Positions 4,880 through 18,958 of a stretch of 35,353 nt of DNA are shown in pieces (the first letter of the stretch is position 1; each line of letters opens with the position of its first letter). The position numbers and the translations under genes were made by a program. Source of the DNA: a virus. The notes beneath the pieces are model-generated. The model saw only the letters and a list, made by a program, of their open reading frames with translations. It did not search any database and was not told where the DNA came from. The stretch lies in UHGV virus genome UHGV-0105470; one strand, written 5' to 3'.

Positions 4880-5479
4880 TTATTTTACCCCTTTGGAGTC
4901 TACATCTAGATGGATAGTATATTCTGGTGGCTCTTGCCCTTCTTCATAAACCAACTCACCATCAACAATGACACGCTCAATAATACTTCCACGTTCATCT
5001 TTCAGGACTGAGTTTTTTACAAGAGTTACAACAAGAGGTGCAGAATTTTCGAAATCTGTATTGAGATAAGTATAGTCATTCGGGATTGCTCCAGTGTCTA
5101 GTACTGTAGCCCCTGTTTCTTCAAGGATTAAATCTCTGACTGAACTCATCTCTAATCGTTGTTTAAGCTCAAGCATAATACTGTGAGCACCTTTACCATT
5201 TACCGTAATTAATACAGGAATCTGAAAAGCAATTCTGTAGCAAACTACATCATCCTCAACAAACTTATCAAGAACCCAACCATAAGGTGTTGCAGCATCT
5301 TGACAGTATACGGTAATAAATGGCTGGTCAGGTTTTAAACCTTTGTCATTTGAGTTATCAGAAGGGTAAGCTCTAATTACATTTGGTCTATTATTCTTAT
5401 CACGAGCTAATCTGTGACCAATAACATCCACTAAGGTTCTAACTAGACCTTTTTCAAGTTCTGCTGTTTCTAACTGCAT
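4880..5479 (-). CDS. hypothetical protein (neck/tail completion candidate)
   Basis: 199-aa ORF between head and tail modules; ATG at 5479. Confidence 0.5.
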   Translation of the reverse strand: MQLETAELEKGLVRTLVDVIGHRLARDKNNRPNVIRAYPSDNSNDKGLKPDQPFITVYCQDAATPYGWVLDKFVEDDVVCYRIAFQIPVLITVNGKGAHSIMLELKQRLEMSSVRDLILEETGATVLDTGAIPNDYTYLNTDFENSAPLVVTLVKNSVLKDERGSIIERVIVDGELVYEEGQEPPEYTIHLDVDSKGVK

Positions 5480-6804: not shown

Positions 6805-7908
6805 TTAGTCTTTGGCGTCAGCACGAACATCTACCAGCAACTGAGGACGAGTACAGTATGGCAGCATGTAAGAGTGAGCTTCAAAGTCAATACCTTCGTC
6901 ACGGTCTTTTTCGTATTCGAATACGTACAGTTCCTGACCAAGTGTGTTTGCATAACCCATCTTAGGACATGGACCATATGCAACTTCGAAGATGTTGTTA
7001 GCTTCACCAAGCATAGATACGTTAGGGAAAGCATGACCAACACCAACAGTTGCTGCTGCACCATCAATGCTCACCAGAGTGTGAACCTTACCACGCTTGT
7101 CTTTGAACTTACCGTTGTACTGGACAAACTTAACACCACCGTAGTAGAAAGTGTTCATATGAGCCTGAACGCCGTCAGTACCACCAGTTCTCAGAGAACC
7201 AGTAATCTGTTGCCAAGCCAGTGGGGTCTGCTGTGCAAGATAAGCGTCACGAATCTTAGGATGCTTAACCAGCTTGCTGAAGAATACACGGTCAACAACT
7301 ACGTGAATTTCTTCACCGTTGATTACAGTGCCAGTCTTAGCTTCGTCTTCCATGTGCATACGCAGTTCTTCAATAGAAGCGTCGATGTCAGCATTAGGGT
7401 TGTCAAGGTCGAAGTAAACAGTCTTCTTCTCAACGTCGAACTGCTTGTACAGGTCAGCGTACAGCGTACCACGAGCATCAACAACTTTACCCTTCAGAGC
7501 TTGCATAAACAGGAACTCACGAGTAATATCGAACTTGGTACGAATCTTCATCAGCTTCTTAGCACGTACTACAGCTTCAGTAGTCAGTTCGTTTGCAGTG
7601 CCTGGCTGACGTACACCCTGAATTTCATCAGGAGTGATGCTTTCAACTTCTTTGAAGTACATCATTGGGAAGCTGATTTGACGGACACGCTCAGGTGCGC
7701 TAGTCTCTGCTTTACGGCTATCACGGTCTACCGCATCAAGCAAGCTAACATCCCAATCAGTCAAGTCCATAAGGAAAGTAGTTTGGGTGATTGGTGCTGA
7801 ACGGAATAGACCTAAGTTGGAAATATACCCATAAGTATTTGGGATAGACTGGACTTCACCAGTCAGGTCAGCAAGGAAAAATCTGCTTTTTTCAGAATTA
7901 GTCAACAT
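6805..7908 (-). CDS. major capsid protein (lambda gpE-like)
   Basis: 367-aa ORF after protease and decoration genes; strong SD (GGAGA) before ATG; C-terminal region resembles lambda E-family capsid proteins from memory. Confidence 0.7.
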   Translation of the reverse strand: MLTNSEKSRFFLADLTGEVQSIPNTYGYISNLGLFRSAPITQTTFLMDLTDWDVSLLDAVDRDSRKAETSAPERVRQISFPMMYFKEVESITPDEIQGVRQPGTANELTTEAVVRAKKLMKIRTKFDITREFLFMQALKGKVVDARGTLYADLYKQFDVEKKTVYFDLDNPNADIDASIEELRMHMEDEAKTGTVINGEEIHVVVDRVFFSKLVKHPKIRDAYLAQQTPLAWQQITGSLRTGGTDGVQAHMNTFYYGGVKFVQYNGKFKDKRGKVHTLVSIDGAAATVGVGHAFPNVSMLGEANNIFEVAYGPCPKMGYANTLGQELYVFEYEKDRDEGIDFEAHSYMLPYCTRPQLLVDVRADAKD

Positions 7909-8330: not shown

Positions 8331-9677
8331 TTATTTAATAAGAGATTTTAGAGCATTCTGGAGAGCCAGTTTGCGTTGTTCAGCGGTGTCTTCGGAAGCA
8401 TTCTTAGCTGGTTCTTTTTCTTCTTCAACCAAATCAGCTTCGCCGTCATTACCCACTTCTTCCATAGCGTTGGAATGTTCAAGAACAGCACCAGCAGTTT
8501 CTTTCAGCTTGGTAATTTCTGATTCTTTTTCTTCCATTGCAGAAGCATGGGACGCGATAGTTTCATTAAGTTTCTGGTTAGCACCTTCCATAGCATTCAT
8601 AAACAGAACACTCAGAGGGTTATCAAGACCAGCACCTAAAATAGTCGTTGCAGCTTCTTTTGCATCAAATCCAAAAGCTTCAGCAGAAGCAGAAATCTTA
8701 TTAGTCAAATCTGACAAAGCAGCTTCCTGTTCTTTAGCTTTCATTTGAGCAACCTGAAGACGCAAAGCTTCTAGTTCTTGCTTTTCTTGTTCAGTCATTT
8801 CTTCACCTGAATTGTTAACGTTTAAACTTACAGGAGCCTCTTCAGAACCTTGTAAGTAATTTAAGAAATCATCTTGAGACATGATTGAGTTAATTAAACC
8901 AAGTTCAAGAGCTTCCTGAGCAGAATAAACATTCGCCTCAGTATTCTTTACAGCTTCTTCAGAGAGATTACGAGATTCAGCTACAAAACCTGTAAAGGTT
9001 GCGTAGGTATCATTAATTCTCTTTTGAAGTCTTTCTTTGCTTTCTTCTGAAAGTGCTTGGAATGGTGAACCCATACCTTTAAACTCACCAGCTTTGATGA
9101 CGTTAATTGTTACGCCATTCTTTTCAAATGCCTTAGTTAATTCCTGATGAACCATGATTACACCGATAGAACCAACATCTGCATCTGGTGATGCAATAAT
9201 TTCTTCAGCAGAAGATGCAAGAGCATATGCAGCGGAACAAGCGAACTCATCTACATAAGCAATAATTTTCTTTTGGCCTCTTGAAGCCATAATGTGACGT
9301 GCTAATTCAAAGCAACCTGAAGCTTCACCACCACCAGAATCAATATGCAGAACAATAGTCTTAATTGACTCATCTGCTAGAGCTTCGTCAAAGCCTCTAC
9401 GTAAACCCTCATAAGAGCTTAAACCACCAGTACACATTGCATCAATGAATGTCATACGATGAGTTAAACCACCCATAATAGGGATAATAGCAATATCATC
9501 TTTTACTTTTAAAAGACTTCTTGCTTCACCTTTGGGTTTATCAAAGTTTACTGCTGCTTGGACATCACCCAGCAATCTGTTATTCACATAAGTTGCTGCT
9601 GAGTGAGCTAATGATTCAGTGGCTAGTAAAGGTTGGTTGAATAATCTATCAGCAAGTCTGAAGATATTCGAACTCAT
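8331..9677 (-). CDS. prohead protease, S49 (SppA/ClpP-like) family, with C-terminal scaffold-like domain
   Basis: HIDSGGGE and DEFACSAAYALAS...VGSIGV motifs typical of S49 peptidases; C-terminal 150 aa is charged and coiled-coil-like (QEKQELEALRLQVAQMKAKEQE). Confidence 0.8.
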   Translation of the reverse strand: MSSNIFRLADRLFNQPLLATESLAHSAATYVNNRLLGDVQAAVNFDKPKGEARSLLKVKDDIAIIPIMGGLTHRMTFIDAMCTGGLSSYEGLRRGFDEALADESIKTIVLHIDSGGGEASGCFELARHIMASRGQKKIIAYVDEFACSAAYALASSAEEIIASPDADVGSIGVIMVHQELTKAFEKNGVTINVIKAGEFKGMGSPFQALSEESKERLQKRINDTYATFTGFVAESRNLSEEAVKNTEANVYSAQEALELGLINSIMSQDDFLNYLQGSEEAPVSLNVNNSGEEMTEQEKQELEALRLQVAQMKAKEQEAALSDLTNKISASAEAFGFDAKEAATTILGAGLDNPLSVLFMNAMEGANQKLNETIASHASAMEEKESEITKLKETAGAVLEHSNAMEEVGNDGEADLVEEEKEPAKNASEDTAEQRKLALQNALKSLIK

Positions 9678-14049: not shown

Positions 14050-14125
14050 TGGAGAATCCGAAGGGACTCGAACCCTTATAGACCTGTTTTGCAGACAGGC
14101 ACATAGCCATTTCTGTCACGGATTC
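14050..14125 (-). tRNA. tRNA-Cys (GCA)
   Basis: Hand-folded cloverleaf: acceptor GAATCCG/CGGATTC, anticodon loop CTGCAAA, T-loop TTCGAGT, CCA encoded. Confidence 0.85.
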
Positions 14126-14129
14126 AAAT

Positions 14130-14222
14130 TGGAGGAAGATACCAGACTTGAACTGGTACACCGATTTCTCAGCTACTGGCAGTTTAGCAAACTGCTCCCT
14201 TACCTTTTAGGGTTAATCTTCC
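14130..14222 (-). tRNA. tRNA-Ser (GCT), class II
   Basis: 93 nt; acceptor GGAAGAT/ATCTTCC; anticodon stem GCAGT/ACTGC with loop TTGCTAA; long variable arm; T-arm ACCAG-TTCAAGT-CTGGT. Confidence 0.85.
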
Positions 14223-14223
14223 A

Positions 14224-14958
14224 TTATTTCTGTAATGCGTTCTTCATTTCTGGTGTTGCAATAGTATCAATTACACCAGTTTTACAAGCATCATCAAACC
14301 AGTCTGGTAAGATACCTGCTAAGAACCCATTGATATTCGTTTTAAGGTACTCTGCAATAAGGGCAGCTTCTTCTTCAATCATCTGCACAACTTCATCTGC
14401 ATAAGCTGTAATCTTCGAGATACCTTCATTAATCTTACTAACAGCTTGGTTAGCTAAATCAGAAACAGTATCAAGACCTTTATCAATAGCATCTTGTAAG
14501 TCACTTAATACATCATTAACACCGTCTAGTGCACTGTTAATTGTGTCAATAGCTTTTTGACCATACTCTGTAGCAACACCCATAATACCACTAAATGGTG
14601 TACAACCAACTTGCTCTCCTGCTGCACCCATAACATTGGAGTAGCCTTTTGCTACCTGCATACGTGAGGAAAACTCATCAATAGACTTTTGACCATAATC
14701 TGTCAATGTCTTAGTGGTTGATGTAGTGCTTGTCAGACTCGTTGTAAAGCTATTAAGCAGAGCTGTTGTAAGTCCAGCAGCAATGAGCTTATCCTTCATT
14801 GTAGGGTCTGTTACAGAGCTAATAGAGCTTACAAGTGATGTAGAGGCAGCCACGGTTCCACCTAGAACTGCTGCACCAGTAATAAGGGGATTAGAAAACC
14901 CTCTACCGGTTTTTAAGAGATTAAAAATCTCCTTACCTTGTTCTGTCATCTCTTTCAT
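14224..14958 (-). CDS. hypothetical protein (Ser/Thr-rich N-terminal half, helical acidic C-terminal half) embedded in tRNA array
   Basis: ORF-track start (GTG at 15021) overlaps tRNA-Phe; ATG at 14956-14958 with SD AAAGGTG is the likelier start. Confidence 0.55.
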   Translation of the reverse strand: MKEMTEQGKEIFNLLKTGRGFSNPLITGAAVLGGTVAASTSLVSSISSVTDPTMKDKLIAAGLTTALLNSFTTSLTSTTSTTKTLTDYGQKSIDEFSSRMQVAKGYSNVMGAAGEQVGCTPFSGIMGVATEYGQKAIDTINSALDGVNDVLSDLQDAIDKGLDTVSDLANQAVSKINEGISKITAYADEVVQMIEEEAALIAEYLKTNINGFLAGILPDWFDDACKTGVIDTIATPEMKNALQK

Positions 14959-14974
14959 TAAGCACCTTTGAAAT

Positions 14975-15051
14975 TGGTAGTCCAGTGGGATTTGAACCCT
15001 CTTCTCATGTTTTTCAGACACGCGCTTTAACCATATAAGCTACTTGGACTA
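14975..15051 (-). tRNA. tRNA-Phe (GAA)
   Basis: Anticodon stem CGTGT/ACATG with loop CTGAAAA; T-loop TTCAAAT; acceptor TAGTCCA/TGGACTA; exact ends ambiguous by 1 nt. Confidence 0.7.
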
Positions 15052-15056
15052 TAAAT

Positions 15057-15132
15057 TGGGGTGACCTACGGGATTTGAACCCGTATAGACCATGTTCACA
15101 GCATGGGTCATTACCTTTTATGATAAGGCCAC
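15057..15132 (-). tRNA. tRNA-His (GTG)
   Basis: D-stem TCAT/ATGA, anticodon stem CCATG/CATGG with loop CTGTGAA, C73 discriminator, CCA encoded. Confidence 0.85.
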
Positions 15133-15163
15133 ATTTAAGGACTCTCGTAAGAACCCTTAGAAG

Positions 15164-15239
15164 TGGCAGCGGCATAAGGATTTGAACCTTAATAAGACAG
15201 CTTCAGAGACTGTTGCATTGCCAGTTATGCTATACCGCT
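15164..15239 (-). tRNA. tRNA-Gln (CTG)
   Basis: D-stem GCAT/ATGC, anticodon loop CTCTGAA, T-arm TAAGG-TTCAAAT-CCTTA, G73. Confidence 0.8.
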
Positions 15240-15244
15240 AAATT

Positions 15245-15323
15245 TGGTACTCCATATCGGATTCGAACCGATACATAACACAGATTTTAAGTCTGGCCTC
15301 TCTGCCAATTGGAGTAATGGAGC
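15245..15323 (-). tRNA. tRNA-Leu (TAA)-like, atypical class-I architecture
   Basis: 79 nt; acceptor GCTCCAT/ATGGAGT; anticodon stem CCAGA/TCTGT with loop CTTAAAA; variable loop only 7 nt; A73; T-arm ATCGG-TTCGAAT-CCGAT. Confidence 0.55.
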
Positions 15324-15325
15324 AT

Positions 15326-15401
15326 TGGCGGGGGATGTTGGAATTGAACCAACTTCTTCGATTTCAAAGACCGAGGTTTTAACCTTGTAAACTAATCCCC
15401 T
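15326..15401 (-). tRNA. tRNA-Gln (TTG)
   Basis: Acceptor AGGGGAT/ATCCCCC with 1-72 mismatch, D-stem GTTT/AAAC, anticodon stem TCGGT/ATCGA with loop CTTTGAA, G73. Confidence 0.8.
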
Positions 15402-15409
15402 TTAAATCT

Positions 15410-15967
15410 TTACTTTCTTAGTGGATGAATAAAGAATGCCAACATAACTCTTTCCCTTGAGAATGCTCTTTCTTCTGGGACAACACTTTTAAGTTTCCAC
15501 CCAACATAAATTCTCCAGTAGAATTGCTTACCAAAGACTTTAATTGACGGGATAAAAGCGAATAATCCCCAAGCATTACTGTTCCACATTAGGAGATAAC
15601 CTGTCTGATTATCTTCAGGGTTAGAACTTACATTGATATTACCTTTCCACTTAGTAACATCTTTTACATCTCTTCCTAACACATGGTAAGAGAAGTTATA
15701 AGCTTTGTTTCTCCAGAGCCAACCAACTCTCTGCATATAGACACCAAGCTTACCAATCTTTCTAATCTTAGCCCATCGTTCGACATGACCTTTATCACCA
15801 TCAATTGGGTTGTCATATGTCTCCATCCATCTGAATCCAAAAGGGAGATGTCCTTTCTTCTCACTGTAGAATGGAACTACGAAAGGTGCTAAGATAACTG
15901 CTAAGATTGCTGCAAATGGCTCTAACAAAGCTAAGAAAATCCATGAAGCATACTTCAAATATCTCAT
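15410..15967 (-). CDS. hypothetical membrane protein embedded in tRNA array
   Basis: 185-aa ORF with hydrophobic N-terminus (WIFLALLEPFAAILAVILAPFVVPF); flanked by tRNA genes. Confidence 0.55.
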   Translation of the reverse strand: MRYLKYASWIFLALLEPFAAILAVILAPFVVPFYSEKKGHLPFGFRWMETYDNPIDGDKGHVERWAKIRKIGKLGVYMQRVGWLWRNKAYNFSYHVLGRDVKDVTKWKGNINVSSNPEDNQTGYLLMWNSNAWGLFAFIPSIKVFGKQFYWRIYVGWKLKSVVPEERAFSRERVMLAFFIHPLRK

Positions 15968-15986
15968 CTAAATAGCCTCTTTAAAT

Positions 15987-16062
15987 TGGCGCAGGATAAG
16001 GGATTCGAACCCCTATTAACAGCTTCGTAGACTGTTGCTCTATCCATTTGAACTAATCCTGC
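15987..16062 (-). tRNA. tRNA-Arg (ACG)
   Basis: Acceptor GCAGGAT/ATCCTGC, anticodon stem ACAGT/GCTGT with loop CTACGAA, T-loop TTCGAAT. Confidence 0.85.
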
Positions 16063-16067
16063 AAAAC

Positions 16068-16145
16068 TGGTGTTCCAAGACGGATTCGAACCGTCACTAA
16101 TACAAGGTTTGAGCTTGCATCCTCTGCCAATTGGGATACTGGAAC
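16068..16145 (-). tRNA. tRNA-Leu (CAA)-like, atypical class-I architecture
   Basis: 78 nt; acceptor GTTCCAG/TTGGAAC; anticodon stem GCAAG/CTTGT with loop CTCAAAC; 6-nt variable loop; A73; shares AATTGGCAG D-loop with 15245-15323. Confidence 0.55.
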
Positions 16146-16146
16146 A

Positions 16147-16222
16147 TGGTACTCACTAAAGGACTTGAACCTTTTTTCTTCATCTTGTAAGGGTGATGTT
16201 TTACCATATAAACTAAGCGAGT
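16147..16222 (-). tRNA. tRNA-Val (TAC)
   Basis: Acceptor ACTCGCT/AGTGAGT, D-stem GTTT/AAAC, anticodon loop CTTACAA, T-arm AAAGG-TTCAAGT-CCTTT. Confidence 0.85.
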
Positions 16223-16318
16223 ATGAAAGAGGTCTGAAGTTGTGCCGCTAACTCAACTCCGTGGAATTTGTTATGGTCTTCAGTTGACTCAAAGCGGTCT
16301 TTCACTTGACCTCTAAAT

Positions 16319-16394
16319 TGGTGCTCCCACAAGGATTCGAACCCTGATAAGTTGCTTACAAGGCAACCGTAATAGCCAATTATACGATAGGAGC
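16319..16394 (-). tRNA. tRNA-Thr (TGT)
   Basis: Acceptor GCTCCTA/TGGGAGC, anticodon stem GTTGC/GCAAC with loop CTTGTAA, T-loop TTCGAAT. Confidence 0.85.
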
Positions 16395-16401
16395 ATTAAT
16401 T

Positions 16402-16476
16402 TGGAGCATCCAGAGGGAATCGAACCCTCAACCTCAGTTTGGAAGACTGTAATTTTCCCGTTTAAACTATGGATGC
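16402..16476 (-). tRNA. tRNA-Gly (TCC)
   Basis: Acceptor GCATCCA/TGGATGC, anticodon loop CTTCCAA, T-arm GAGGG-TTCGATT-CCCTC. Confidence 0.8.
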
Positions 16477-16482
16477 ACTAAT

Positions 16483-16558
16483 TGGTGGAGTCACTGAGAA
16501 TTGAACTCAGTTCCCAAGTTTGCAAAACTCGAATTTTAACCATATAAACTATGACCCC
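16483..16558 (-). tRNA. tRNA-Ala (TGC)
   Basis: G3-U70 wobble in acceptor (Ala identity element), anticodon loop TTTGCAA, T-arm CTGAG-TTCAATT-CTCAG. Confidence 0.85.
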
Positions 16559-16564
16559 ATTGCT

Positions 16565-16640
16565 TGGTACAGGTGGAGGGAATTGAACCCATCGTCTTAC
16601 TGATTAAGAGTCAGCCGCATAACCATTTTGCTACACCTGC
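16565..16640 (-). tRNA. tRNA-Lys (CTT)
   Basis: Acceptor GCAGGTG/CACCTGT, anticodon stem GCTGA/TCAGT with loop CTCTTAA; T-stem only 3 clean bp. Confidence 0.7.
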
Positions 16641-16647
16641 ATTAATT

Positions 16648-16725
16648 TGGTAGGAGACAAGGGATTCGAACCCTCAAACACCAACTTCTAAGGATGGTAG
16701 GTTTACCAATTACCGTCAATCTCCC
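16648..16725 (-). tRNA. tRNA-Leu (TAG)-like, atypical class-I architecture
   Basis: 78 nt; acceptor GGGAGAT/GTCTCCT (two G-U); anticodon stem CCATC/GTTGG with loop CTTAGAA; 5-nt variable loop; A73. Confidence 0.5.
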
Positions 16726-16977
16726 ATTAAATCTTTTTAGAGAACTTCTAAGAACCTAAGCAACAAGGTTCCACAACAAGCTGTAATAACCTTAGAAGCC
16801 CTCTAAAAAGACCTAATTTGGTCTTTGCATAGTCTTGTTTAATCCGGTGACTAGAACCTTTGGAGAGCTTGATATATCTCTTCTCCGTGACACCTACTAG
16901 GTGCTTTATCAGTGTACGACAATACACGAGGGATAAACCGAAAATGCGAGCAAGCATGGACGGTGTAAATCTTATTA

Positions 16978-17067
16978 GGCGGTAAGTAAAGGAGTCGAAC
17001 CCTCACCGTATCTCTACAGTGGCAACAGTTTTCAAGACTGTTTGGCTGCCATTAGCCGCTACCTACC
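16978..17067 (-). tRNA. tRNA-Ser (TGA), class II
   Basis: 90 nt; acceptor GGTAGGT/ACTTACC; anticodon stem ACAGT/ACTGT with loop CTTGAAA; long variable arm; T-loop TTCGACT; 3' CCA not fully encoded. Confidence 0.8.
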
Positions 17068-17080
17068 CCTAATAAGATTT

Positions 17081-17163
17081 TGGCATGGGACGGAGGAGTT
17101 GAACCCCTTTGAAACGGTTTTGGAGGCCGTTGCTCATGCCTTAGAGTCTTAACATCGTCCCAT
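17081..17163 (-). tRNA. tRNA-Trp (CCA)-like, atypical 83 nt
   Basis: Acceptor ATGGGAC/GTCCCAT, Trp-type anticodon loop CTCCAAA, T-loop TTCAACT, G73 CCA; 5' half about 7 nt longer than canonical. Confidence 0.5.
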
Positions 17164-17305
17164 ACTGTAATTCGAAGCTTACCGTATTTTCACAACACTG
17201 TAAAGCCCCTTCTCAGATTATTTACATGTTCTGGAAAACATGAGATACAGACCACCTCCTTACACGGAGACCCGATAAGGTCGTCTAAGCAATCTGCTAA
17301 CTATT

Positions 17306-17382
17306 TGGCACACCCTACAGGATTCGAACCTGTAACTCAATGATTAGAAGTCATTTGCTCTGTCCAGTTGAACTAAGGGTGC
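17306..17382 (-). tRNA. tRNA-Arg (TCT)
   Basis: Acceptor GCACCCT/AGGGTGT, D-stem GTTC/GAGC, anticodon stem AATGA/TCATT with loop CTTCTAA. Confidence 0.85.
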
Positions 17383-17629
17383 ATTAATCTTTAAAAACTC
17401 TCTTAGAAAGCCCTTAAAGATGCCCACCTTATTAATCATACCGTGGGCTAGTACGCCAAATTCTTTGATGAGGGATTGGAAGACCTCACTGGTGTTTAGC
17501 CTATCAAGCTACTGCCAGAAAAACATTGTCGTTTGCATTTATTTTAAATTTGCAAAATAGACGCTACGCAACGAAAACTAAGGTTACTATAAAGTGGTCA
17601 CATCTAAATGTCAACAACTTTATTGAAAT

Positions 17630-17705
17630 TGGTACTGGTAGGTGGAATCGAACCACCGATGTTCCCTTATCAGGGGAGTGTTATAACCTTCTTAACTATA
17701 CCAGC
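17630..17705 (-). tRNA. tRNA-Ile (GAT)
   Basis: Acceptor GCTGGTA/TACCAGT, anticodon loop CTGATAA, T-arm GGTGG-TTCGATT-CCACC. Confidence 0.85.
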
Positions 17706-17706
17706 T

Positions 17707-17782
17707 TGGAGGTTCAGATGGGATTCGAACCCACATTCATAGGGCTTATGAGACCCTTGCATTACCTTATCTGCGACTGAAC
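17707..17782 (-). tRNA. tRNA-Met (CAT); elongator, initiator or Ile2 not distinguishable
   Basis: Acceptor GGTTCAG/CTGAACC, anticodon stem AGGGT/GCCCT with loop CTCATAA. Confidence 0.8.
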
Positions 17783-17787
17783 CATAT

Positions 17788-17863
17788 TGGTAGAAGTGGA
17801 GGGATTCGAACCCATCGCCTGTCAGATTAAAAGTCTGCCGCATCACCATTCTGCTACACTTCC
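17788..17863 (-). tRNA. tRNA-Lys (TTT)
   Basis: Acceptor GGAAGTG/CACTTCT, anticodon loop CTTTTAA; paralogous in sequence to the Lys (CTT) gene. Confidence 0.8.
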
Positions 17864-17869
17864 ATTAAA

Positions 17870-18009
17870 TTATCTTTGTAGATAAGCTACCCAGACTTGC
17901 TTAAGGTCTGTAGCGATGTGCCTTGTTGGGTTTAAATCTAGAATTTACCCTTTCACCCTTTGTGGTCGCATACTCACAGGTAAGCTTAATAACTTATCTA
18001 CAAAGATAA
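17870..18009. repeat. 16-17 bp inverted repeat pair (ttatctttgtagataag / cttatctacaaagataa) flanking about 105 bp
   Basis: Exact reverse-complement 16-mers at about 17870-17886 and 17993-18009 inside the tRNA array spacer. Confidence 0.6.
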
Positions 18010-18060
18010 TTACCAGACCGTTGTTTATCATCTTAAGTGCTACCATTACACCAACTCGAC

Positions 18061-18140
18061 ATCTGCCGAGTGAAGGAATCGAACCTTCGCCTTTTCTTTA
18101 CCGGAGAAATAGATTGTTTAAGTTTTGCTGTAAACGGTCT
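18061..18140 (-). pseudogene. tRNA remnant (intact T-arm, no pairing acceptor stem)
   Basis: T-arm GAAGG-TTCGATT-CCTTC and stem-loop TTTCT-CCGGTAA-AGAAA, but no 5' strand complementary to ACTCGGC and C at loop position 33. Confidence 0.35.
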
Positions 18141-18154
18141 TCTGTAAATTTGTT

Positions 18155-18235
18155 GAGCCAGACCAAGTTTTAAATTTTCAAAATTAAATTGGCTTTAAAT
18201 TTTAAGTAACTTGCTGAATTTGGTCTTCTGCTCCT
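18155..18235 (-). ncRNA. conserved spacer stem element in tRNA array (one of four copies)
   Basis: CCAGACC(R) ... (Y)GGTCTTCTG ends with compensatory R/Y covariation across copies at 18011-18145, 18155-18235, 18558-18625, 18714-18796. Confidence 0.4.
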
Positions 18236-18291
18236 TTAAAGAATACTCGTAAGAACCCTTTAAGGGAGGGGCTAAATAGCCCTCTCAAAAT

Positions 18292-18368
18292 TGGCGGTTA
18301 CGATGAGACTTGAACTCACATCATCTCCCGTGACAGGGGAGTATTTTATCCAGTTAAACTACATAACC
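18292..18368 (-). tRNA. tRNA-Asp (GTC)
   Basis: Acceptor GGTTATG/CGTAACC, anticodon stem CTCCC/GGGAG with loop CTGTCAC, T-loop TTCAAGT. Confidence 0.85.
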
Positions 18369-18374
18369 TTTATT

Positions 18375-18462
18375 TGGTGTGCCGTGTAGGAGTCGAACCT
18401 ACCGAGTCTCAATGACAAGGGATTTACAGTCCCCACCGCTACCATCTACGGGATAACGACAC
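18375..18462 (-). tRNA. tRNA-Tyr (GTA), class II
   Basis: 88 nt; acceptor GTGTCGT/ACGGCAC; anticodon stem GGGGA/TCCCT with loop CTGTAAA; long variable arm; T-arm GTAGG-TTCGACT-CCTAC. Confidence 0.8.
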
Positions 18463-18471
18463 ATTTAAATT

Positions 18472-18548
18472 TGGCGGTTAGTCAGGGATTCGAACCCTGT
18501 GCCATTCGCTTAACAGGCGACCGCACATACCTTATGTGCTTCCTAACC
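18472..18548 (-). tRNA. tRNA-Asn (GTT)
   Basis: D-stem GCAC/GTGC, anticodon loop CTGTTAA, T-arm CAGGG-TTCGAAT-CCCTG. Confidence 0.8.
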
Positions 18549-18628
18549 TTAATATATTGCCAGACCGTGTTTTTTTTTCTTTTATCCGCAAAAAGTAGTT
18601 TATTGCTGCATACGGTCTTCTGCAAAAT

Positions 18629-18705
18629 TGGAGGCGGGTGCAGGAGTCGAACCTGCCGATGCCATGCTAATGAGACATGTGAGACGCCCTTTCTCTATAC
18701 CCGCA
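18629..18705 (-). tRNA. tRNA with CAT anticodon (Met or Ile2), second copy
   Basis: Anticodon stem CATGT/GCATG with loop CTCATTA (pyrimidine at 37), T-arm GCAGG-TTCGACT-CCTGC, 1-72 mismatch. Confidence 0.6.
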
Positions 18706-18796
18706 ATTCTTAATGACCAGACCAAATCTCTTCTTTGTCCGATTTAGCTTCAGATGAATAAGATTAAGTTTGCTGTAATTGGTCTTCTGTCAAAAC

Positions 18797-18874
18797 TGGC
18801 GTTCCAGAAGGGATTTTAACCCTCAAATATCCACTTTGAAAGAGTGGTGACTATACCATTTTGTCTACTGGAAC
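18797..18874 (-). tRNA. tRNA-Glu (TTC)
   Basis: Acceptor GTTCCAG/CTGGAAC, anticodon stem CCACT/AGTGG with loop CTTTCAA; unusual T-loop TTAAAAT (A at position 56). Confidence 0.75.
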
Positions 18875-18881
18875 ATTAATT

Positions 18882-18958
18882 TGGTCTCTGTTGGAGGACT
18901 TGAACCTCCGGCCTTACCGCCCCAAACGGAACACTCTACCAAGCTGAGCTAAACAGAG
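18882..18958 (-). tRNA. tRNA-Pro (TGG)
   Basis: C1-G72 acceptor CTCTGTT/AACAGAG, D-stem GCTC/GAGT, anticodon loop TTTGGGG, T-arm GGAGG-TTCAAGT-CCTCC. Confidence 0.85.

Follow-up and report, generated by a model that had tools for sequence, protein, structure and literature searches.

In Escherichia coli, leucyl-tRNA synthetase (LeuRS) identifies its transfer RNA (tRNA) through A73, the A15:U48 pair, G18G19, A20a, and tertiary pairs that join the D-loop to the T-loop; the long variable arm and the anticodon are both dispensable, and a minimal tRNA-Leu without the arm is still charged and edited (PMC9976931). As summarized in that review, systematic evolution of ligands by exponential enrichment (SELEX) found A15-U48, G18G19, and A20a to be essential and the sequence and folding of the arm to be uncorrelated with activity (Asahara et al. 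1998), and the minimalist armless E. coli tRNA-Leu of Larkin et al. (2002) was aminoacylated and edited if A73 and the D/T-loop pairs were intact (PMC9976931). Human mitochondrial tRNA-Leu(UUR) is a natural armless substrate of LeuRS, recognized through A73 and A14 (PMC9976931). Here, we analyzed three tRNA-Leu genes with the anticodons UAA, CAA, and UAG in the virus genome UHGV-0105470 (35,353 nucleotides [nt], the whole stretch being referred to as the window), whose products appear to lack the long arm.

The window comes from a myovirus of the Felix O1 type (Felixounavirus, Ounavirinae). Its region 15100-16900 was matched by 310 phage records at 80 to 99% identity, mostly from phages of Escherichia, Salmonella, Shigella, and Citrobacter, and many of these records already carry the annotation "tRNA-Leu (x3)." ARAGORN called the three genes with the same coordinates, strand, and anticodons as an initial annotation made from the sequence, and the Rfam model RF00005 matched each over its full length (47.5 bits for Leu(UAA), 44.0 for Leu(CAA), and 40.0 for Leu(UAG), against a gathering score of 29).

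15245-15323, minus strand: tRNA-Leu(UAA), called by ARAGORN and Rfam; 79 nt, i.e., 76 nt plus an encoded CCA
16068-16145, minus strand: tRNA-Leu(CAA), called by ARAGORN and Rfam; 78 nt, i.e., 75 nt plus an encoded CCA
16648-16725, minus strand: tRNA-Leu(UAG), called by ARAGORN and Rfam; 78 nt, i.e., 75 nt plus an encoded CCA

Variable regions were measured from the ARAGORN cloverleaves and by a segmentation anchored on the anticodon loop and the T-loop, which for Leu(UAA) was done on the identical copy in phage VpaE1. The regions are GUUAUGU in Leu(UAA) (7 nt), AUUAGU in Leu(CAA) (6 nt, or 5 nt if U26:A44 counts as a pair), and UGUUU in Leu(UAG) (5 nt). We took at least 10 nt with an extra stem-loop as the mark of a class II tRNA; all three regions are shorter than this, and no stem is possible in them. 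The 78- to 79-nt cloverleaves with 5- to 7-nt variable loops that had been drawn by hand in the initial annotation were thus recovered, together with the A73 it had noted in all three genes and the D-loop CAAUUGGCAGA common to Leu(UAA) and Leu(CAA). It had also described long arms in the Ser and Tyr tRNAs of the same array, and these served as class II controls, with extra stems of 4 to 5 base pairs (bp) in the ARAGORN fold.

14050-18958, minus strand: tRNA array of 26 genes and 19 isotypes, called by ARAGORN
14130-14222, minus strand: tRNA-Ser(gct), called by ARAGORN; 93 nt, with extra arm
16978-17067, minus strand: tRNA-Ser(tga), called by ARAGORN; 90 nt, with extra arm
18375-18462, minus strand: tRNA-Tyr(gta), called by ARAGORN; 88 nt, with extra arm

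No class II tRNA-Leu was called in the window by ARAGORN, relaxed thresholds included, as the initial annotation had stated for the array. Its suggestion that the array covers all 20 amino acids did not hold: neither ARAGORN nor Rfam called a tRNA-Trp in the array, with default or relaxed settings, which leaves 19 isotypes, in agreement with the paper on the related phage Sf14 (PMC12482277).

Leu(UAA) has a 7-bp acceptor stem with G1.U72, followed by U8 and A9, and carries A73. Its D-arm consists of a 3-bp stem (CUC/GAG) and the 11-nt loop CAAUUGGCAGA, its anticodon stem of 4 bp plus a C27.U43 mismatch, closed by the loop CUUAAAA, and its T-arm reads AUCGG-UUCGAAU-CCGAU. Leu(CAA) is a paralogue of this gene, with a D-arm of the same type (stem UCC/GGA, loop CAAUUGGCAGA), the anticodon loop CUCAAAC, G1:C72, and A73. 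Leu(UAG) has G1.U72, A73, the anticodon loop CUUAGAA, and a U30.U40 mismatch in the anticodon stem. The D region of this third gene, UGACGGUAAUUGGUAAACCUA, is 1 nt longer than in its homologues from T5-like phages, which have a standard Leu D-arm (AUG-GAAUUGGCAUA-CAU). Because of this 1-nt insertion in the Ounavirinae version, the register of the D-stem is ambiguous: it may be read as GGU/ACC (3 bp), which leaves a 9-nt loop and a spacer of 3 nt, or as ACG/CCU, which contains a C.C mismatch. In all three tRNAs, the acceptor and T stems are fully paired, and each anticodon, of the Leu type (NAG or YAA), lies in a 7-nt loop with U33. Measured against class I tRNAs (a 4- to 5-nt variable loop and a 4-bp D-stem), the overall size fits; only the UAG gene has a 5-nt variable loop, and the UAA and CAA genes combine loops of 7 and 6 nt with the 3-bp/11-nt D-arm typical of class II tRNA-Leu.

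For comparison, we fetched the E. coli K-12 genes leuZ (UAA, 87 nt), leuX (CAA, 85 nt), leuW (UAG, 85 nt), and leuV (CAG, 87 nt) by coordinate and segmented them in the same way. Their variable regions are 13 to 15 nt long and form a paired arm in the ARAGORN fold of leuZ and leuW but not of leuX, whereas the 5 to 7 nt of the phage tRNAs are unpaired. Beyond the arm, leuZ, leuX, and leuW share with the phage trio the anticodons, A73, U8/A14, A15:U48, G18G19, A20a, the type of T-loop, and the encoded CCA. The D-arm of E. coli tRNA-Leu has a 3-bp stem and an 11-nt loop (N-AAUYGGYAGA) and lies at a fixed distance (13 nt) from the anticodon loop, a form that Leu(UAA) and Leu(CAA) match. Because this match is exact, we read Leu(UAA) and Leu(CAA) as bacterial tRNA-Leu bodies without the extra arm and not as class I tRNAs that acquired a Leu anticodon. 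The phage tRNAs differ from those of E. coli in having C13 instead of G13 and different flanks in the anticodon loop (C32). They also differ at the first acceptor pair: the G1.U72 wobble occurs in two of the three window genes and in 42 of 85 nonredundant compact viral tRNA-Leu sequences (described below), while the four fetched E. coli genes all have G1:C72. When E. coli genomes (28 Gb) were searched by blastn with the 79-nt Leu(UAA) gene, no match was obtained at an E value of ≤10, a result that is uninformative at such a query length.

The nucleotides by which LeuRS recognizes tRNA-Leu (A73, A14, A15:U48, G18G19, and A20a) are all present in the three window tRNAs. Their D-loops (CAAUUGGCAGA in two genes and UAAUUGGUAA in the third), variable regions ending in U, and T-loop UUCGAAU correspond to an intact tertiary core, which we defined to include a T-loop able to form G18:U55, G19:C56, and U54:A58. 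In phage Sf14, the tRNAscan-SE isotype models rank Leu first for each of the three homologues, with scores of 60.2 for TAA, 49.1 for CAA, and 67.4 for TAG (PMC12482277).

The genes are also well conserved. Of the 273 phage records that match Leu(UAA), 216 carry an exact copy (100% identity), the surrounding region being 90 to 99% identical. The anticodon stem of Leu(UAG) occurs in Felixounavirus as CCAUC/GUUGG (the window), UCUCG/CGAGA (VpaE1 and ASO1B), and CCUCG/CGAGG (Si3) and is fully compensated in VpaE1 and Si3. To examine covariation more widely, we collected compact tRNA-Leu sequences from 238 IMG/VR loci and from the fetched phages, kept those of 74 nt, and clustered them at <88% identity, which gave a gap-free alignment of 85 nonredundant sequences. 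As the prefilter used acceptor-stem pairing and A35 only, the other helices are unbiased, apart from the detection criteria of ARAGORN, which remain as a bias. Standard pairs filled 98.7% of the cells of the compact cloverleaf, compared with 61.5% after column shuffling and 34 to 47% with slid partners; the covariation score was 0.99, compared with 0.23 for shuffled columns and at most 0.17 for slid partners, and both sides changed in 19 of 21 pairs. The A15:U48 pair was kept in 84 of the 85 sequences. Among nonredundant compact viral tRNA-Leu sequences, A73 was present in 95 of 97, A14 in 97 of 97, and U48 in 96 of 97. The genes thus do not look like pseudogenes: the stems are paired, the conserved nucleotides are intact, the Leu(UAG) stem is compensated, and the family covaries.

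We then compared codon usage between 36 long open reading frames (ORFs) of the window (38.8% G+C) and 41 annotated E. coli K-12 genes. Per 1,000 codons, the phage uses UUA 21.8, CUU 23.2, CUA 10.0, UUG 10.4, CUC 5.4, and CUG 11.3 times, and E. coli uses them 10.2, 9.3, 4.1, 10.2, 8.7, and 57.0 times, respectively. UUA, CUA, and CUU are therefore used 2.1, 2.4, and 2.5 times as often as in E. coli and CUG 0.2 times as often. The check that the initial annotation had proposed for UUA, UUG, and CUA accordingly came out in favor of tRNA-Leu genes for UUA and CUA, with UUG at 10.4 versus 10.2. The three anticodons cover codons that the phage overuses, which is the classical picture of codon compensation, already proposed for Leu(UUA) in the Felix O1 genome paper (PMC3185647).

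We consider it likely that the products of the three genes are functional leucine tRNAs of a compact, class I-sized build that the host LeuRS charges. The initial annotation had left the choice between compact Leu tRNAs and tRNA-like RNAs with another role; the first option is well supported in silico, while charging is something that we infer. The three tRNAs would most likely be transcribed together with the other genes of the array and processed by enzymes of the host. Leucine would then be attached by the host LeuRS, as this enzyme reads A73 and the elbow of the D- and T-loops (A15:U48, G18G19, and A20a) and needs neither the anticodon nor the arm. In translation, Leu(UAA) would decode UUA and UUG, Leu(CAA) would decode UUG, and Leu(UAG) would decode CUA and possibly other CUN codons. 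There are two precedents for such charging, each different from the phage case. The engineered minimalist tRNA-Leu molecules of E. coli are laboratory constructs, whereas the phage genes are natural, conserved, and covarying. Animal mitochondrial tRNA-Leu(UUR) and tRNA-Leu(CUN) are natural, lack the long arm, and are read by a bacterial-type LeuRS mainly through A73 and A14 (PMC9976931). They are, however, organellar and highly divergent, with weak cores, whereas the phage tRNAs have a canonical bacterial elbow and D-loop and would need to be read by an ordinary cytoplasmic bacterial LeuRS.

Several observations weigh against the view that these are working leucine tRNAs. The D-arm of Leu(UAG) is irregular and not shared with Leu(UAA) and Leu(CAA), and two of the three tRNAs have a mismatch in the anticodon stem. 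Among the minimum free energy (MFE) folds, only that of Leu(CAA) comes near a cloverleaf, its D-arm excepted, and the z-scores of the three are −0.8 to −2.2; MFE folding is a weak test of a cloverleaf, and we relied on covariation instead. The outcomes that the initial annotation had named as damaging (another isotype, a hidden long arm, or a class II tRNA-Leu in the array) did not materialize, except that the UAG gene carries the label "tRNA-pseudo/tRNA-OTHER" in some GenBank records, for which the irregular D-arm is the probable reason. In the anticodon loop, Leu(UAG) has CUUAGAA where the host leuW has UUUAGGU, so that A37 replaces G37 and the m1G37 site is seemingly absent, and Leu(CAA) has C38 (CUCAAAC) where leuX has A38; host modification may therefore differ. 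The Sf14 study lists the same anticodon-loop differences and ties such changes to nuclease evasion (PMC12482277). In that study, moreover, the Leu score of Leu(UAG), 67.4, is barely above those for Ile2 (65.7) and Lys (63.4) (PMC12482277). In LeuRS complexes, an arginine of the C-terminal domain (Arg811 in E. coli and Arg921 in Mycobacterium tuberculosis) contacts base 47h of the arm, and mutating it reduces catalytic efficiency and editing (PMC3561953). Because of this contact, armless tRNAs may be somewhat poorer substrates. Finally, the Leu(UAG) of T5, which is noted as convertible to an amber suppressor and which we had considered as functional support, was ruled out, because the T5 gene is long-armed (85 nt, with a 13-nt variable region) and the note on it cannot be transferred; the records of the compact form in phages SP15, 5, and BF23 have no functional note.

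Compact tRNA-Leu genes occur in a broad range of other phages. The T5-like phage SP15 encodes compact UAA and UAG genes of 77 nt with the CCA, and phages 5 and BF23 also have the compact form. Lactobacillus phage Bacchae has its UAG, UAA, and CAA genes all in the compact form, and compact UAA and CAA genes are also present in Myxococcus phage Mx1 and Aeromonas phage AhSzw-1. In other phages, the compact gene stands next to a class II gene: a compact UAG gene next to a class II UAA gene in Seunavirus SalP219 and next to an 87-nt UAA gene in Pectobacterium phage Wc4, and a compact CAG gene next to a class II UAG gene in Xanthomonas phage X1. Ser and Tyr tRNAs remain long in all of these phages. 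The window Leu(UAG) has compact homologues with ~84% identity in T5-like phages, Seunavirus, and Pectobacterium phages. Like the window genes, the compact genes of other phages and of Mycobacteriales (see below) have A73, and they share the Leu-type D-arm with the window UAA and CAA genes. They are 74 nt long with a 5-nt variable loop ending in U, whereas the variable loop is slightly longer in the window UAA gene (7 nt) and CAA gene (6 nt), and the window UAG gene has the 1-nt insertion in its D region.

T5 itself has its long Leu(UAG) gene at 7625-7709 of the retrieved locus, with a poorly paired arm. The compact Leu(UAG) gene of SP15 (8997-9073 of the retrieved locus) and those of phages 5 and BF23 look unrelated to that of T5 and are located near the same Ala and Ser neighbors. 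This looks like a natural swap of long and compact Leu(UAG) genes within Tequintavirus.

Recombination between compact genes was also seen. Salmonella phages FG1m (4999-5076 of the retrieved locus) and Si3 carry chimeric Leu tRNAs that arose from recombination between Leu(caa) and Leu(taa), which deleted the genes between the two. In FG1m, the breakpoint is in the T-loop, giving a CAA anticodon with the 3′ end of the UAA gene; in Si3, it is in the D-loop, giving the 5′ end of the CAA gene with a UAA anticodon. Six of the seven positions in the chimeric acceptor stems still pair.

To compare phages with bacteria, we built a length-neutral pattern (AATTGG-N13-YTNAR-N{15,33}-GGTTCRA) that accepts both length classes, relying on the constant 13 nt that separate AATTGG from the anticodon loop. 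In the first 80 loci listed from IMG/VR, it matched 32 compact, 3 intermediate, and 54 class II tRNAs (36% compact); in 120 loci listed from GTDB (one genome per species), it matched 3 compact, 1 intermediate, and 119 class II tRNAs (2.4% compact), one of the three compact ones carrying a Phe anticodon. Among the matches listed, the compact form is thus enriched in viruses over bacteria (odds ratio, 22; P = 4 × 10−11 by Fisher's test), with the qualification that the pattern is blind to tRNAs lacking an AATTGG D-loop or a GGTTCRA T-arm and that these figures are sample ratios and not a census. The loss of the arm is specific to Leu, as short forms made up just 3 of 140 Ser tRNAs and 1 of 69 Tyr tRNAs across the 238 viral loci listed, compared with 172 of 333 Leu tRNAs, a figure inflated by the way the loci were selected.

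Two of the bacterial matches listed are genuine compact tRNA-Leu genes. Mycobacterium sp. OTB74 has a compact tRNA-Leu(UAA) (8356-8430 of the retrieved locus) and a Hoyosella sp. has a compact tRNA-Leu(CAA) (807-883 of the retrieved locus), both as lone chromosomal genes with GC-rich stems and 5-nt variable loops. A prophage origin was considered and rejected, because the flanks contain ordinary genes (for a sigma factor, a CMD-family protein, a multicopper oxidase, and a periplasmic binding protein) and no integrase or other phage genes. The D-arm of the Mycobacteriales genes (UA-GCC-CAAUUGGCAGA-GGC-A) hardly differs from that of the compact genes in Myxococcus, Lactobacillus, and Felix O1-like phages, and homologues that align to the OTB74 gene without gaps carry the annotation tRNA-Leu in 204 phage records, from phages of Streptomyces, Erwinia, Mycobacterium, Vibrio, Synechococcus, Pseudomonas, Bacillus, Lactobacillus, and Enterococcus. 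An armless tRNA-Leu thus appears to be in native use in some Mycobacteriales, which would be exceptions to the rule by which bacterial tRNA-Leu always belongs to class II.

With the variable region masked, the nearest neighbor was also compact for 96 of 124 viral compact tRNA-Leu sequences, and about a fifth were closest to a class II tRNA. The D-loops fall mainly into two families: that of the C13 type (CAAUUGGYAGA) is absent from the common class II D-loops of either sample, and the "AUA" type (GAAUUGGYAUA) is rare in bacteria. This picture fits a few old compact lineages that spread among phages, with occasional independent losses of the arm. The window genes would belong to such old lineages, circulating among phages of many bacterial phyla. 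Judging from these sequences, compact tRNA-Leu is not peculiar to the window phage; it is a widespread phage design that is also native in some Mycobacteriales.

As to why the arm is missing, the simplest view is a tolerated loss, the arm being the one large feature of tRNA-Leu that LeuRS can spare. Bacterial tyrosyl-tRNA synthetase (TyrRS) uses the arm for recognition. Seryl-tRNA synthetase (SerRS) likewise uses it and LeuRS does not (PMC9976931), and because of this difference only tRNA-Leu can lose it. Alternatively, the loss may have been selected, for example, as an escape from enzymes that grip the class II arm. Leucine would still be carried, and removing the arm would take away a handle for host defense nucleases or nucleotidyltransferases, or for a phage-induced attack on host tRNA-Leu, so that phage translation continues while host tRNA-Leu is inactivated. 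This explanation seems to us unlikely, yet it has precedents. Retron-Eco7 and Septu cleave E. coli tRNA-Tyr in the variable arm, and the tRNA-Tyr of T5 resists retron-Eco7 through its distinctive variable loop (PMC13096335; PMC11555353); the abortive-infection toxin AbiEii seems to favor class II tRNAs (according to a preprint), as does MenT3. T5 tRNA-Tyr resembles the window genes in being a phage tRNA of a class II family with a host-unlike variable region, encoded in a large array of a virulent coliphage. Its arm, however, is kept but changed and its antidefense role was demonstrated by experiment, whereas in the window tRNA-Leu genes the arm is absent and a role in defense is conjectural. 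The enrichment of compact tRNA-Leu in viruses over bacteria (odds ratio of 22 among the matches listed) and the host-unlike anticodon loops of the CAA and UAG genes, a pattern tied to nuclease evasion (PMC12482277), would also suit an adaptation. On the other hand, no defense system is known to target tRNA-Leu via the arm, and Leu goes unmentioned in two recent tRNase papers. Many phages keep a class II tRNA-Leu next to the compact one (Wc4, SalP219, and X1), T5 has the long form only, some Mycobacteriales use the compact form natively, and the specificity for Leu is explained equally well by a tolerated loss. We therefore hold it to be doubtful that arm shedding is a recurrent, selected phage strategy that hides tRNA-Leu from enzymes, of the host or of rivals, by which the arm is gripped or cut, with Leu being the one to shed it because tRNA-Leu is the only class II tRNA with a synthetase that does not need it. 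If true, it would point to undiscovered immunity directed at tRNA-Leu and to natural LeuRS substrates that differ in shape from those of the host.

It is improbable that the three RNAs act outside translation as tRNA-like decoys or regulators or are decaying pseudogenes with a Leu-like anticodon. They do score lowest among the short-variable-loop tRNAs of the array called by RF00005, and the "tRNA-pseudo/tRNA-OTHER" labels, the anticodon-stem mismatches, and the weak MFE folds point the same way, as does the fact that T5-like phages encode stable tRNA-like RNAs of unknown function. But the paired acceptor and T stems, encoded CCA, U33, canonical T-loop, and full set of LeuRS identity nucleotides are those of a tRNA, the stem substitutions are compensatory, Leu(UAA) has stayed almost unchanged in more than 200 genomes, and the anticodons match codons that the phage overuses. 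Decay, moreover, would not keep A73, A15:U48, and A20a across phyla. A switch of identity, in which another synthetase charges the armless tRNAs and UUA, UUG, and CUA are partly recoded in infected cells, is very improbable. It could draw on the close tRNAscan-SE scores of Sf14 Leu(UAG) for Leu, Ile2, Lys, and Arg (PMC12482277) and on the natural UAG-anticodon tRNAs of yeast mitochondria that are charged with Thr or Ala (PMC7609411). Against this, Leu is the top isotype for all three Sf14 homologues (PMC12482277), and A73, A15:U48, G18G19, and A20a together make up the Leu set (PMC9976931). No identity element of another synthetase is evident, as there is no G3:U70 and no long arm with G73 for SerRS, and most other synthetases read the anticodon, which here is Leu specific.

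For the window alone, the result is modest, as three already annotated tRNA-Leu genes turn out to be of a structural type that has seemingly gone unremarked. We found no remark on the missing arm of phage tRNA-Leu in the literature searched, which did not extend to older T5/BF23 tRNA papers in subscription journals. An armless phage tRNA-Leu is not mentioned in the Felix O1 genome paper (PMC3185647), the Sf14 study (PMC12482277), or the identity review (PMC9976931), nor is one described in the PARIS and OLD papers, and a review of natural noncanonical tRNAs lists Leu as class II and does not contain the word "phage" (PMC7609411). The compact sequence of phages 5 and BF23 has been public since about 2004, and the genes are annotated in hundreds of GenBank records. 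The compact genes would thus represent an ordinary function, tRNA-Leu, in a structural class that seems not to have been recognized for bacterial-type systems, although it was possibly mentioned before. Textbooks and current reviews regard the long arm as invariable in tRNA-Leu, animal mitochondria excepted, a view that a natural armless form contradicts; at the same time, such a form confirms in nature the prediction that LeuRS biochemistry had made with minimal tRNAs engineered in the laboratory. An isotype-specific structural difference between phage and host is what a signature of immune evasion would look like, given the defenses that cleave the arm of tRNA-Tyr. The compact design also explains the occasional "pseudo" or "OTHER" labels from annotation pipelines and offers natural scaffolds for Leu suppressor tRNAs.

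Two other elements of the array deserve mention. At about 17083-17165 on the minus strand, between tRNA-Arg(tct) and tRNA-Ser(tga), lies the sole candidate for a tRNA-Trp, an unannotated and noncanonical Trp-like element, assembled by eye only, with the acceptor stem AUGGGAC/GUCCCAU (A1:U72), G73, CCA, and the anticodon loop CUCCAAA (anticodon CCA), a loop that we take to be the same as in E. coli tRNA-Trp. It has a D-stem of UGUU/AGCA, an oversized 16-nt D-loop, and a 4-bp T-arm. Default ARAGORN missed the element, Rfam gave it 23 bits as tRNA-Sec, and its conservation among other Felixounaviruses is 95 to 98%. The element may be a decayed gene or else the tRNA-Trp that is "missing" from the array. 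Relaxed ARAGORN called a "tRNA-Pyl(cta)" at 17082-17177, which we considered as a hidden class II tRNA and rejected, as the fold is poor and the Trp-like register fits better; it is not a Leu tRNA. An ORF of ~185 codons (MRYLKYASWIFLALLEPFAAILAV...) lies at about 15410-15965 on the minus strand, between tRNA-Arg(acg) and tRNA-Gln(ttg). Its product is annotated as hypothetical in related phages and is apparently a membrane protein.

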